A stretch of 64,000 nt of DNA from the NCBI GenBank assembly GCA_964421015.1, contig CAYQUS010000002.1, positions 72,538 to 136,537 of the forward strand. The letters run 5' to 3'. Below are positions 24,049-30,465 of the stretch, piece by piece. The translations under genes and the position numbers were made by a program. This stretch comes from an uncultured Planctomycetia bacterium. GTDB lineage: Bacteria > Omnitrophota > Gorgyraeia > Tantalellales > Tantalellaceae. Under the pieces are notes generated by a model, which saw only the letters and a list, made by a program, of their open reading frames with translations, ran no database searches and was not told the origin of the DNA. How positions within the stretch are numbered: the first letter of the stretch is position 1; each line of letters opens with the position of its first letter.

Positions 24049-24912
24049 TTAAGATAAACTCTCGCCTTCCAGGAGCATTCTCAGTATCCTGTCCAGATCT
24101 TCTTTTGAAAAATACTGTATCTCTATCCTTCCTCTCTTTTTCCCGTGTTTTATCACTACTCTCGTTCCGAACTTGTGCTGAAGCTTTTCTTCTACGCTTT
24201 CTGTTTCAACGTCCTTTTTCTTTCCCTCTCTTGAGAGAGACATTCCGAACCGGCGTACCATGTTCTCGGTTTCTCTTACCGAAAGTCCTTTCTTTAAAAT
24301 AGCTTGCAGAACTTTTTTTCTTCTCTGATCATTCGGCGCGGATAAAAGAGCTTTGGCGTGCCCTGCCGATATTCTCCCTTCTTCCAGAAGGTCCAGGGTC
24401 TCCTTTGCCAAGGTTAAAAGGCGCAGACTGTTAGACACGGTGGTTTTATCTTTGCCCATCATCTGACCCACCTTGTCAAGAGTGTACTCGAACTTATCAA
24501 TAAGCTCTTTGTACGCTGTTGCCTCTTCTACCGCATTCAGTTCTTCTCTCTGAATATTTTCTATCAGGGATATTTCCAAAGAATTAGCATCGTCAATATC
24601 TCTTCTGACTATTACCGGAACCTCTTCCAGTTTCAATTCTTGGGCGGCTCTCCACCTTCGTTCTCCTGCTATTATTTCGTATTTTTCCCCAAAAGGCCGG
24701 ACTAAAATGGGCTGTATAATCCCCTTCTCTCTTAGAGAATTTACTAATTCCTCCATTTTGTCTGTGGAGAAACGTTTTCTTGGCTGAAATGGATTTGGAA
24801 TTAAGAGGTTGGTATTTACTCTTTCCACTTTTTCCTTACTTTTTGTTACATCTCCCGAAATAAGAGCATCCAGGCCCTTACCCAATCTCTTTTCCGTATT
24901 CTTGATTTCCAT
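24049..24912 (-). CDS. parB: Chromosome partitioning protein ParB/Spo0J
   Basis: GLDALI N-terminal box, ParB box II (GERRWRAA), HTH. Confidence 0.9.
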   Translation of the reverse strand: MEIKNTEKRLGKGLDALISGDVTKSKEKVERVNTNLLIPNPFQPRKRFSTDKMEELVNSLREKGIIQPILVRPFGEKYEIIAGERRWRAAQELKLEEVPVIVRRDIDDANSLEISLIENIQREELNAVEEATAYKELIDKFEYTLDKVGQMMGKDKTTVSNSLRLLTLAKETLDLLEEGRISAGHAKALLSAPNDQRRKKVLQAILKKGLSVRETENMVRRFGMSLSREGKKKDVETESVEEKLQHKFGTRVVIKHGKKRGRIEIQYFSKEDLDRILRMLLEGESLS

Positions 24913-25720
24913 TTATTTCAACTCCTTTATTTAAAACTGGTTCTGCACATTTTTCTTCATTATTTTTTAGCCCAAGTATTTCTTTTACGGCATCCTCGTA
25001 TTTTTTTGCCCCGATGGACGTCGGATCGTACAAGGCTATGGGTTTCCCGAAGCCCGGAGCTTCTGTCAGTTTTACTGTTCTTGGTATAATTGACTTATAA
25101 ACCTTTTCTCCAAAATGCTTTATTACTTCATTGATCACTTCTTTTGTGAGATTGGTTCTGTAGTCGGCAAGAGTCATCAATACACCTTCCACAAACAGTT
25201 TTTCATTAAGATTATCTCTTATAAGATCTAGTGTTTGCATAAGTTGGCTTAGTCCCTCTAGAGCATAATATTCGCATTGTATTGGTATTATAACAGAGTT
25301 TGCGGCGGTAAGCCCGTTTATCGTCAAAAGACCAAGTGATGGGGGACAGTCCAAAACAACAAAATCAAAACGGCTTTTCATCTCTTGCAGGGCTTTTCTG
25401 AGCCTGTATTCACGCCCCATAACATTCACAAGCTCAACTTCAGCTCCTGTCAGGCTTATGCTGGAAGGAATTATTTTAAGTTTGTCTATTTCTGTAGCCA
25501 TAATCGCCATATCTATGGGAATATGCTCGTGTAAAACATTGTATACACTGTTAGTTATCTCGCGCTTATTTATTCCCACACCGCTTGTAGCGTTTGCCTG
25601 TGGATCAAGATCTATTAGGAGAGTATCTTTGCCGTACAATGCCAGATATGCGGCTATATTGATAGCCGACGTCGTTTTAGCCACGCCGCCTTTCTGATTA
25701 CAAAAAGCTATTTTTTTCAT
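24878..25720 (-). CDS. parA: Chromosome partitioning ATPase ParA/Soj
   Basis: Deviant Walker A KGGVAKTT. 3' end overlaps parB by 35 nt. Confidence 0.9.
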   Translation of the reverse strand: MKKIAFCNQKGGVAKTTSAINIAAYLALYGKDTLLIDLDPQANATSGVGINKREITNSVYNVLHEHIPIDMAIMATEIDKLKIIPSSISLTGAEVELVNVMGREYRLRKALQEMKSRFDFVVLDCPPSLGLLTINGLTAANSVIIPIQCEYYALEGLSQLMQTLDLIRDNLNEKLFVEGVLMTLADYRTNLTKEVINEVIKHFGEKVYKSIIPRTVKLTEAPGFGKPIALYDPTSIGAKKYEDAVKEILGLKNNEEKCAEPVLNKGVEINGNQEYGKEIG

Positions 25721-25816
25721 ATGAGTCTCTTTGTTATTGGAGGGGGTAATTTTAATTGTCTGGAGTATACCATATATAAGGAAGGTATGTCAATAATTAA
25801 AACTTTTTCCTTCTGA

Positions 25817-25836
25817 AAGTTTCCACGTGGAAACTT
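25817..25836. promoter_or_regulatory. parS-like perfect palindrome AAGTTTCCAC|GTGGAAACTT (copy 1)
   Basis: Perfect 20-bp inverted repeat with CACGTG core, upstream of parA. Confidence 0.45.
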
Positions 25837-25883
25837 TTTTAGCCTATGTTTTCTTGCAGGGGAGGGGGCGCGGATTTTTCGGA

Positions 25884-25903
25884 ATGTTTCCACGTGGAAA
25901 CTT
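25884..25903. promoter_or_regulatory. parS-like palindrome AATGTTTCCAC|GTGGAAACTTT (copy 2)
   Basis: Identical 16-bp core GTTTCCACGTGGAAAC, 67 bp from copy 1. Confidence 0.45.
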
Positions 25904-25943
25904 TGGGCATTCATCTGGAAAAGTTTTCTGCTGTAATGGGGAA

Positions 25944-26159
25944 TTACTCTGCTTTTAGCGGCTTGTGTTCGAGGGTAACTCTTACTTTCGCGGGCTCAGC
26001 CCCTTGCATGCCAAAAAGACCTTTTTGCTCTTCTTTAAGAACCTCTATTGAAACTTCTTGTTCGGTAGCGTTGAGCTTTTTTAGCGCTTTCTTTATGGCG
26101 TCTTTTACGGTTTTTCCTTCAACTTCTATTGTTCTTTCCTGATTTCTTTGAGGATTCAT
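25944..26159 (-). CDS. Jag_N (KhpB N-terminal) domain-only small protein
   Basis: 71 aa. TIEVEGKTVKDAIKKALKKL...AKVRV matches the Jag_N fold. Sits where jag/khpB normally follows yidC, but no KH or R3H domain. Confidence 0.55.
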   Translation of the reverse strand: MNPQRNQERTIEVEGKTVKDAIKKALKKLNATEQEVSIEVLKEEQKGLFGMQGAEPAKVRVTLEHKPLKAE

Positions 26160-28519: not shown

Positions 28520-28849
28520 CGCTTCTCCTTCTTTTTCTGTTTCTCGTCTAACAAGACCCGCTGATTATATCATACCTTAATATCAAGTCAAGATAATTAG
28601 GTTCCTGTTTTTCCCGGCACCGGAACCCTTTTTCTCCCTTAAAACGGCCTGATTATGTCTACTCTATTTTTTTCTCCTTTAGATTTCTCTTGCATAGCAT
28701 TTTCTTTCCAGATATAATGCTCTTCGCGGGATTTTTCTCTTGTTTTTACACTTTTGTCTGTGGATAACTTGTTGATATCTGCTCTTGGTGCTGTGGAAAA
28801 CTCTCTTTTTTCTGTTGATAACATTCGTTCTATCTTTCCGTATAAAAAT
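28520..28849. other. rpmH-dnaA intergenic region: candidate oriC / dnaA control region
   Basis: Point of gene-strand inversion. Perfect DnaA box TGTGGATAA at 28759-28767 and a 1-mismatch box TGTTGATAA at 28813-28821 (both lie inside the 5' extension of the track's dnaA ORF). Confidence 0.5.
28690..28718 (+). promoter_or_regulatory. Putative dnaA promoter TTGCAT-17-TATAAT
   Basis: Sigma70-like hexamers with 17-nt spacing upstream of dnaA. Confidence 0.35.
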
Positions 28850-30247
28850 ATGCAGACTATCTGGGACAAGACCCGTTCTTTACTGAAGACTGAATCCGAT
28901 GAGTTCATGTTTGACACCTGGTTTTCTCCTATATCTCAGGTTTCCGTGTCTGATACGGCTATAACTCTCGGGGTGCCCAGCAAGTTCCATGAGGATTGGC
29001 TTCGGGACAAATATCTGGATCTCCTTAAAAAGGCGGTGCTCCGCTCCTGCGGAAAACCTCTCGAAATAAACTTCATCGTCCATGACTCGCCTGCCCTGGA
29101 ACATGCGGGAAGCTTTGCCTCCGCGGTTCCCGGGCCTTTGACCCAAGACAAAAAGAAGGATCAATCGGTAGGATGGCTTAAGTCTGTTTTTTCCCAGGCT
29201 CGGCCGGCAGCCGAAAATAAAGCTAAAGAGATAGGGCTTAAAGGCGCTTACACTTTCGCGAATTTTGTGGTCGGCCCAAGCAATCAGTTCGCTCACGCAG
29301 CGGCGATGGCCGTTTGCGAGAACCTTTCCAAGGCCTACAACCCGCTTTTTCTATACGGAGGCGTGGGGCTTGGCAAAACTCATCTTATGCAGTCCCTGGC
29401 CCATGAGATAATAACGAGATATCCGAAGGCCAAGATACTTTACATAACCAGCGAGGACTTCACCAATCAGCTTATCTCCGCCATAAGGACCAAGACCACT
29501 CAGAAATTCCGTTCTCTTTTCCGTTCCGTGGACGTTCTTCTTGTCGATGATATACAGTTCATCGCCGGGAAGGAATCCACACAGGAGGAATTTTTCCATA
29601 CTTTTAATTCTCTGCACGACGCCCATAAACAACTTGTTTTTTGCAGCGACAGGTCTCCTAACGAGATCCCCGACCTTGAGGACCGCCTTGTTTCAAGGTT
29701 TTCCTGGGGTTTGACCGCCGACATACAGCCGCCGGATTTTGAGACCAGATCCGCTATTCTTGAGAAAAAGTGCGAGAACGAGAACATAAAGATACCGCAG
29801 GATGTCCTTTTTTTCCTGGCCGACAATATAAAAACGAACATAAGGGAGATGGAGGGCGCTCTTATCCGAGTGGTCGCTTACTCCCATTTGACTGGTAAGG
29901 AAATGTCCGTGGACCTTGCCAGGAACGTTCTTAAGGGAATGATATCTTCCGGGTCCAAGACCATTTCCGTGGACCTTATACAGAAAAAGGTTTCTGAGTT
30001 TTTTGGTATAAGCGAAAATGAAATGAAAACCAAAAAAAGGTCCAGATCTGTATCTTACCCAAGGCAGGTGGCGATGTTCCTTTCCAGGGAATTGACAAAT
30101 TTTTCCCTGCCCGATATAGGCGGGTTTTTCGGAGGAAGAGACCATTCCACGGTTGTTCATGCCTGTGATAAGATAGGAAAGGAAATAAAGGCTAATGGAG
30201 AAACAAGAGGCCTTGTTGAGAAGCTTACTCGGATAATTAAGTCCTGA
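28850..30247 (+). CDS. dnaA: Chromosomal replication initiator protein DnaA
   Basis: AAA+ Walker A GGVGLGKTHL, DnaA C-terminal DNA-binding signature. Start at M33 of the track ORF (MQTIWDKTRSLLK...FDTWFSPI matches the conserved DnaA N-terminus). Confidence 0.9.
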   Translation: MQTIWDKTRSLLKTESDEFMFDTWFSPISQVSVSDTAITLGVPSKFHEDWLRDKYLDLLKKAVLRSCGKPLEINFIVHDSPALEHAGSFASAVPGPLTQDKKKDQSVGWLKSVFSQARPAAENKAKEIGLKGAYTFANFVVGPSNQFAHAAAMAVCENLSKAYNPLFLYGGVGLGKTHLMQSLAHEIITRYPKAKILYITSEDFTNQLISAIRTKTTQKFRSLFRSVDVLLVDDIQFIAGKESTQEEFFHTFNSLHDAHKQLVFCSDRSPNEIPDLEDRLVSRFSWGLTADIQPPDFETRSAILEKKCENENIKIPQDVLFFLADNIKTNIREMEGALIRVVAYSHLTGKEMSVDLARNVLKGMISSGSKTISVDLIQKKVSEFFGISENEMKTKKRSRSVSYPRQVAMFLSRELTNFSLPDIGGFFGGRDHSTVVHACDKIGKEIKANGETRGLVEKLTRIIKS

Positions 30248-30465
30248 TCTTTGGATCTACTGTTGATATCCTGTTTTTGTTATTGACCTTAAAAAACCGG
30301 GTTATGTAAAGATATCCACAGGCTTTTTGGGTTGTAACTCTTTTATTTTAAAGAAAAAATGTAAGTTATCCACACAAAAAAAGGCACCTATTACATCTAT
30401 TACTGCTGTTTTTATTTAAAAACCAGTTGTTGTTGAAGGAGCTTAAGACCAATTAAGGGGGAAGT
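30248..30465. other. dnaA-dnaN intergenic DnaA-box cluster with AT-rich stretches (candidate oriC/DUE)
   Basis: Perfect TTATCCACA at 30366-30374, ATATCCACA at 30312-30320, TGTTGATAT at 30261. AT-rich TTTTATTTTAAAGAAAAAATG and TGTTTTTATTTAAAAACC. Confidence 0.5.

Follow-up and report, generated by a model that had tools for sequence, protein, structure and literature searches.

Replicon-specific ParB/parS pairs of plasmids and secondary chromosomes, such as ParB2/parS2 of Vibrio and those of multi-replicon Burkholderia, combine private centromeres with diverged ParB-family HTH proteins. Chromosomal parS is described in reviews as 'highly conserved... mainly TGTTNCACGTGAAACA' (PMC7022226), and guanine 1 of GTTTCAC is contacted by Arg173 of ParB (Caulobacter numbering) through a hydrogen bond (PMC7383237). 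R173 was reported as absolutely conserved and indispensable for parS binding, and was kept in all parS-binding variants of a 160,000-variant screen (Jalal et al. 2020, PMC7383237), the specificity residues at positions 173/179/184/201 in parS-type ParB being R-T-A-G (PMC7383237). In Noc/NBS of Firmicutes, a ParB paralogue has been re-specified to TATTTCCCGGGAAATA via Q173, K179, K184 and R201 (Jalal et al. 2020, PMC7383237).

The locus studied here lies in a 64-kb stretch of DNA, analysed at its full length and called the window below, in which two palindromes are located between a short jag gene and parAB. The features on which the analysis relies are as follows.

24049-24912, minus strand: parB, 287 aa, with ParB_N, HTH_ParB and ParB_C domains (Pfam) and the CTP-binding boxes QPR, GERR and ENxQR.
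24433..24456, minus strand: start of the ParB recognition helix, GKDKTTVS, residues 153-160, from the alignment to characterised ParBs.
24878-25720, minus strand: parA, a Soj-type partition ATPase of 280 aa (AAA_31 9.8e-66, CbiA, MipZ).
25764..25793, minus strand: predicted sigma-70-type parAB promoter, with the -35 element TTGACA at 25793-25788, an 18-nt spacer and an extended -10 element TG-TATACT at 25769-25764 (11/12 consensus matches).
25816..25837, no strand assigned: putative variant parS site 1, a 22-bp perfect palindrome, AAAGTTTCCACGTGGAAACTTT, with its core at 25819-25834; the same core is found in the jag-parA gap of relatives.
25884..25903, no strand assigned: putative variant parS site 2, ATGTTTCCACGTGGAAACTT, with a perfect 16-bp core at 25886-25901.
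25944-26159, minus strand: Jag_N-only gene, 71 aa (Pfam), bordering the site-bearing gap; the same short gene is present in relatives.
28754-30247, plus strand: dnaA, from gene context.

Both sites are origin-proximal and beside parAB, 97-184 bp upstream of parA and ~2.9 kb from dnaA, so that the context given in an earlier note on this DNA, a 223-bp gap between the Jag_N gene and parA at about 3 kb from dnaA, was borne out. The genes yidC, yidD and rnpA come after the Jag_N gene, all on the minus strand, the predicted parAB promoter is placed between site 1 and the parA start codon, and the GC skew switches sign near 30 kb of the window. Matches to the DnaA box (TTATCCACA, at most one mismatch) clustered at the 5' end of dnaA (28759-28821) and in the dnaA-dnaN gap (30312-30374), with 21 observed in the whole window against 9.3 expected; these clusters are consistent with an oriC flanking dnaA. 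The Jag/KhpB homologue is only 62-71 aa long in the window and in loci L200-L208, where it comprises the Jag_N domain alone, and this form, without KH and R3H RNA-binding domains, is conserved across Omnitrophota.

The 16-bp core, GTTTCCACGTGGAAAC, was present in the window as two exact copies (25819-25834 and 25886-25901) with 67 bp between the cores, and no further match to the 16-mer was found in the 64 kb with up to three mismatches allowed, confirming both the pair of CACGTG-centred palindromes with a common core and the spacing claimed for it. The coordinates held for site 1, first noted as AAGTTTCCACGTGGAAACTT at 25817-25836, a perfect palindrome whose perfection in fact reaches 22 bp (25816-25837), while those of site 2 (25884-25903) had to be corrected: the string reported, AATGTTTCCACGTGGAAACTTT, is 22 nt long and spans 25883-25904, one base more at each end, and its perfection is limited to the 16-bp core at 25886-25901. 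Because two exact 16-mers were present and none of 100 dinucleotide-preserving shuffles of the window yielded any exact match, a chance origin of the pair is excluded. The canonical TGTTNCACGTGAAACA was absent from the 64-kb window, where a search allowing up to three mismatches gave as its best candidate a poor match with two.

We then compared the sites with canonical parS. The central 12 bp, TTCCACGTGGAA, are identical to those of the canonical C-type site TGTTCCACGTGGAACA, and the differences in each half are confined to ±7 (G→T) and ±8 (T→G), amounting to 4 of 16 positions. With respect to the canonical consensus (TGTTNCACGTGAAACA, 14-bp core GTTNCACGTGNAAC), the sites present two mismatches to the 14-bp core, at ±7, and are variant, non-canonical members of parS. 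The conserved variant block reads G(-8) T T T Y C A C(-1), an 8-bp half-site G-T-T-T-(C/T)-C-A-C, and the canonical half-site in loci whose ParB carries R173, including the symmetric TGTTCCACGTGGAACA, reads G(-7) T T Y C A C, 7 bp, with the naturally variable C/T position at -4 in both. Since the central 12 bp and the Y at -4 are unchanged, the inner register of the half-site is kept and the outer conserved G alone has moved, from ±7 to ±8. The extra base per half described earlier is better placed in the T-tract than beside the dyad, and displacement of the outer G is a more economical description than half-sites sitting 1 bp further from the dyad.

On the protein side, the window ParB was aligned to the ParB proteins of Thermus, Caulobacter and Myxococcus (identity 43-48%), with residue roles taken from Jalal et al. 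2020 (PMC7383237). It is a full-length protein (ParB_N with the GERR box, HTH and C-terminal dimerisation domain) encoded together with ParA, and its CTP-binding boxes are intact, the invariant alignment columns being Q43 P44 R45, G83 E84 R85 R86 and E118 N119 Q121 R122. In the recognition helix, whose comparison with characterised ParBs had been proposed earlier, Lys and Ser replace R173 and A177: K156 (codon 24445-24447) aligns with Caulobacter R173 and S160 (codon 24433-24435) with Caulobacter A177. At positions 173/179/184/201 the window ParB reads K-S-T-G, and its K173 breaks the reported absolute conservation of R173. Given that the parS binders of the published screen all kept R173 (PMC7383237), a K173 ParB is expected not to use canonical parS. 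K173 was found in all 117 top homologues with a readable helix (three others did not match the pattern) and in 20/20 full-length ParBs from motif-bearing parAB loci. R204K was considered as a second determinant and rejected because several K173 proteins retain R204.

To evaluate whether the site is kept together with this protein, we turned to its relatives. All named ParB relatives at 60-77% identity were 'Candidatus Omnitrophota/Omnitrophica bacterium', and the window is assigned to a Candidatus Omnitrophota genome. The search for canonical parS near oriC and for the palindrome in other genomes gave no canonical site in the 64-kb window and the exact 16-mer in at least 119 stretches of species-representative genomes, a sample chosen by motif; in 28 of those listed, it lay in the yidC-jag-[site]-parA-parB gap or at the visible edge of that arrangement. 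The ParBs of these 28 motif-fetched loci were 39-66% identical to the window ParB, and the records were labelled Omnitrophota, 'Planctomycetia' and, in one case, Elusimicrobiales.

As this sample was chosen by motif, loci were also fetched by protein, blind to the motif. All of the K173 loci obtained in this way carried the variant palindrome in the same gap (8/8): six ParB homologues at 61-70% identity (L200-L205) had two variant sites each in the jag-parA gap, one of those in L205 being a hybrid with the halves GGTTTCAC and GTGAAAAC, while L227 and L228 had one variant site each. Canonical parS, at up to one mismatch, was found in no K173 locus. The aligned gaps of relatives were otherwise unalignable, the only conserved blocks being the palindromes and a CTTGAC...TATATT promoter element, and the position of the site relative to the promoter varied, since both sites of the window are upstream of it, L227 has its site downstream and L200-L202 have sites on either side. 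In a profile pooled from 61 sites of 36 K173 loci, G was present in 97% at -8, T in 98% at -7 and C or T in 88% and 11%, respectively, at -4; conservation ended at G(-8), with only a weak A (56%) at -9. The site is thus kept at the orthologous position, where it replaces the canonical parS of R173 relatives.

The complementary set came from scanning metagenome contigs with a ParB profile, which yielded 80 diverse ParB loci (identity 38-51%), every one of them with R173 (80/80). Canonical sites (at most one mismatch to GTTNCACGTGNAAC) were present in 35 of these 80 loci, and the variant palindrome was present in none of them. The nearest R173 relatives, L120 and L123, have the dnaA-yidC-jag-parA-parB synteny in common and carry two canonical sites in the same jag-parA gap. 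All 48 protein-fetched loci having a site paired either K173 with a ±8 G or R173 with a ±7 G, and the split of recognisable sites (8/0 versus 0/40) gave a Fisher p = 2.7e-9, with shared ancestry ignored. When 66 K-type and 83 R-type sequences were compared, column 173 was the sole fully partitioned column (K 66/66, R 83/83), followed by column 177 (S 95% versus A/T) and column 162 (L 82% versus Q 90%). Among the nearest 150 representatives at 50% identity, out of 1.84 billion proteins, R173 was found in 140 and K173 in five, each of the five also carrying S177 (5/5).

The number of times that the switch occurred is uncertain, since a rough NJ tree scatters K173. In a distance tree, L041 (K173) was closest to L122 (R173), and the L122-type subclade of Omnitrophota had R173 in 120/120 listed proteins, mostly with T177, K184 and A201. 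A few K173/S177 proteins are related to this subclade, and both P0241 (L041) and P0296 (L227 and L228) were accompanied by the exact AGTTTCCACGTGGAAACT; the P0296 site is at the orthologous position, enclosed by the same TTGACA-N17-GATAAT promoter on one side and the same CGTAACT...CAATGGGTA leader on the other. In the rough NJ tree, P0296 and P0328 were nested inside the R173 subclade and P0241 and P0242 formed a small group beside it, and a single K173 clade was not supported. The scatter may reflect either repeated switching or retained ancestral states, and there was probably more than one independent R/K event. Since most of the K173 sequences could go back to a small number of events, the co-variation may amount to some two to four independent contrasts in the rough NJ tree. 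One R173 locus, L121, had neither site class but degenerate, overlapping mixed sites (AGTTCCCCGTGGAAAAGTTTCCACTGGAACA; L121:7480-7545) behind its promoter, and ~450 bp of extra sequence lies between these mixed sites and parA.

The L122-type R173 subclade was itself seen to depart from the canonical site in another way. Five of its loci (L206-L208, L229 and L230) contained 16-bp-spaced sites in their jag-parA gaps, with G at ±7 and unusual centres: TGTTCCCTGTGGAACA, TGTTCCGCGTGGAACA, TGTTCCCCGGGGAACA, GTTTCCCGGGGAAC, TGTTCCTCGCGGAACA and GTTTCGCGTGGAAC. The centres in this R173/T177/A201 subclade are CCCGGG, CGCGTG, CCTGTG or CTCGCG, and not CACGTG, and its proteins (P0121-P0240) are ParBs with R173, T177, K184 and A201, G201 being another residue reported as absolutely conserved. 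The subclade has phylum, synteny, promoter and site position in common with the K173 loci, but its guanine is at ±7, its centre is altered and its residue 201 is A, where the window ParB has G. The R173/A201 subclade is a second, different departure from canonical parS. On the Omnitrophota contig of L229, gyrB (L229:1-1193) encodes a 1787-aa product with intein and LAGLIDADG domains (Pfam).

The palindrome was also found in other lineages. A Kiritimatiellae MAG carried six copies of the 16-mer in 600 bp (L093:7299-7911) and a Lentisphaerae MAG carried two (L065:250-595, with dnaA ~4.4 kb away), in both cases inside or at the 5' part of gidA/mnmG and flanked by T...A (TGTTTCCACGTGGAAACA). In a Planctomycetota contig (L045:4270-7956), four exact copies fall within 300 bp, bounded by a 469-aa ParB/SopB-like gene on one side and a phage-type integrase on the other, and adjoin an MmeI-type restriction-modification gene; this cluster looks like the partition site of a mobile element, and the ParB/SopB-like protein had K and S at positions 173 and 177 in a low-identity alignment. 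Two gammaproteobacterial MAGs (L040:218-1026 and L097:5970-6766) encoded orthologous, divergent ParB-like proteins of ~250 aa (HTH_ParB and ParB_C with a degenerate N domain), with the helix GL(S/A)RSMVCNLVR and R at the aligned position 173; TATGTTTCCACGTGGAAACATA precedes each start codon by 35-60 bp, and the ParB-like gene of L040 is followed by one for a hipA kinase. This protein may be a ParB-HTH autoregulator or antitoxin using the same palindrome. Because this R-bearing family carries TGTTTCCACGTGGAAACA just upstream of its gene, K173 is not the sole protein context of the palindrome, which other ParB-HTH solutions can apparently also use.

A different distribution was observed in CASFZN01 ('uncultured bacterium SI.B36.metabat-bins.38', 26-30% GC), where at least 19 exact copies of the 16-mer, mostly intergenic and often as AAAAAAGTTTCCACGTGGAAACTTTTTT, were spread over a 426-kb contig and four others (L003, L006, L017, L022, L025, L035, L050, L066, L073, L074, L081-L083, L102, L103, L110 and L114). 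This genome is not from Omnitrophota (its DnaA is 30% identical), and its copies are too many and too dispersed for the usual ori-proximal parS cluster; they could be a repeat element or a scattered ParB/Noc-like site. The 16-mer was also present in Gemmatales and Gaiellales/Thermoleophilia MAGs, and four exact copies were found in 520 bp of the cultured Burkholderia sp. Ac-20353 (L109:250-785), a cluster with no match in the plasmid collection, no Pfam match on three nearby ORFs and alpha-amylase on a fourth. The 18 matches in viral contigs were mostly single and were judged to be near chance.

Taken together, these comparisons of sequence make it likely that the two palindromes are an origin-proximal parS centromere in a lineage-specific form, read by a ParB that co-varies with it. 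A parS read by a co-evolved ParB is the most economical reading, since the sites stand in for canonical parS, their one difference from it is the base pair that residue 173 reads, and this residue has changed along with them. The first of the two explanations put forward in the earlier note, a modified parS read by this lineage's ParB, is therefore strongly favoured by the conserved position, the complete co-variation with the guanine-contacting residue and the lack of canonical parS. In the mechanism we propose, the ParB encoded 0.9 kb downstream would nucleate on the sites as a dimer and would then close and slide in the usual CTP-dependent manner, forming a partition complex moved by ParA, and it would probably exert feedback on the neighbouring parAB promoter as well. 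The pair K156 (173) and S160 (177) is proposed to read the displaced guanine at ±8, although how the Lys would reach it is not obvious, as Lys is shorter than Arg and the guanine lies one base pair further out.

Such feedback could also be the main function, the ParB-bound sites being mainly autoregulatory operators of parAB and the true centromere lying elsewhere in the genome. The 64 kb of genome covered contains only two sites, both hugging the parAB promoter, as this would predict, but two to four ori-proximal sites beside parAB are the normal parS arrangement, the R173 metagenome loci show the same layout, the ParB has a complete CTP-clamp N-domain and the ±30 kb around oriC contain no site of another type. 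The roles of centromere and operator are, moreover, not mutually exclusive, and we regard this alternative as unlikely.

Less probable still, and in our judgement very doubtful, is that the palindromes are operators of an unrelated dimeric transcription factor controlling parAB, with ParB using some other site. Their location in the parAB promoter region and their size, typical of operators, would fit this proposal, the second one of the earlier note, yet it found no support: the presence of the site follows the identity of the ParB residue in contact with the altered base, and the site stands where the R173 relatives carry canonical parS, from which it differs at two positions per half and no more. 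Unlike that of a classical operator, its position relative to the promoter is not fixed, and the 64-kb window contains no other candidate site for ParB. A role of the palindromes as hairpins in RNA, terminating or attenuating transcription between jag and parA, can be dismissed as extremely improbable, for although a perfect palindrome necessarily folds (-9.7 and -7.1 kcal/mol on the transcribed strand), these energies have z-scores of just -2.1 and -0.6, the sites were not flagged by the terminator scan and a hairpin would conserve pairing, not exact sequence, across ParBs 39-66% identical, and the hairpin reading and a Rho-independent terminator, which has a G+C-rich stem and a U-tract, were rejected because the stems are weak and neither is followed by a U-tract on the transcribed (-) strand.

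Returning to a parS read by a co-evolved ParB, the K173 loci and the R173/A201 subclade raise the tentative proposal, to which we give somewhat less than even weight, that the chromosomal ParB-parS interface, textbook-invariant across bacteria, has been re-specified more than once in one phylum by a simple residue-base code, giving naturally orthogonal chromosomal centromeres in Omnitrophota. In this code, a ±7 G would be recognised by R173 and a ±8 G by K173 together with S177, and A201 would accompany a centre that is relaxed or altered. Such centromeres would probably extend to Kiritimatiellae and Lentisphaerae, since the variant also forms clusters in gidA beside dnaA in those lineages. 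The residue-base rule is directly testable by K156R/S160A swaps against 16-bp and 18-bp-type sites.

Chromosomal parS is among the most conserved DNA sites in bacteria, and this lineage provides a natural experiment in the drift of an essential protein-DNA interface that keeps its function. The variant also explains why motif-based parS finders would return 'no parS' for these genomes, and it would provide a new orthogonal ParB/parS pair for the multi-colour DNA-labelling tools that rely on such pairs (ParSite, mParSpot). In the searchable literature, the 16-mer and its 14-bp core appeared in no relevant context, and nothing relevant was found on parS in Planctomycetes or Omnitrophota/Omnitrophica or on non-canonical parS. 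The variant form of parS is thus unreported in that literature, while the system itself is the known ParABS with the recognition pair R173/G ±7 changed.

Compared with the replicon-specific pairs, the cluster of 16-mers beside the divergent ParB/SopB-like gene of L045, on a putative mobile element, is alike; those pairs belong to accessory replicons with strongly diverged ParBs, whereas here it is the ParB of the primary chromosome that is concerned. With Noc/NBS, the system has in common that specificity is re-programmed via residue 173, the reader of the outermost specific base of the half-site. It is not a member of that class, having a CACGTG centre with an outer G and the residues K, S, T and G: the ParB is the orthologous chromosomal protein and not a paralogue, the site remains at oriC, G201 is unchanged alongside the replacements R173K and A177S, and the base is displaced rather than substituted, with the CACGTG centre retained. 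The closest likeness is to canonical parS (TGTTNCACGTGAAACA; symmetric C-type TGTTCCACGTGGAACA as in Pseudomonas) and ParB/Spo0J. The sites are CACGTG-centred palindromes with an identical central 12 bp, in few copies at an ori-proximal position beside parAB, and their cognate ParB matches the canonical one in its three domains and its CTP-binding boxes. They differ in having the guanine at ±8 and not at ±7, with T at ±7, so that the conserved block is 16 bp instead of 14 bp, and in being paired with a ParB that carries K173/S177 in place of R173/A(T)177.
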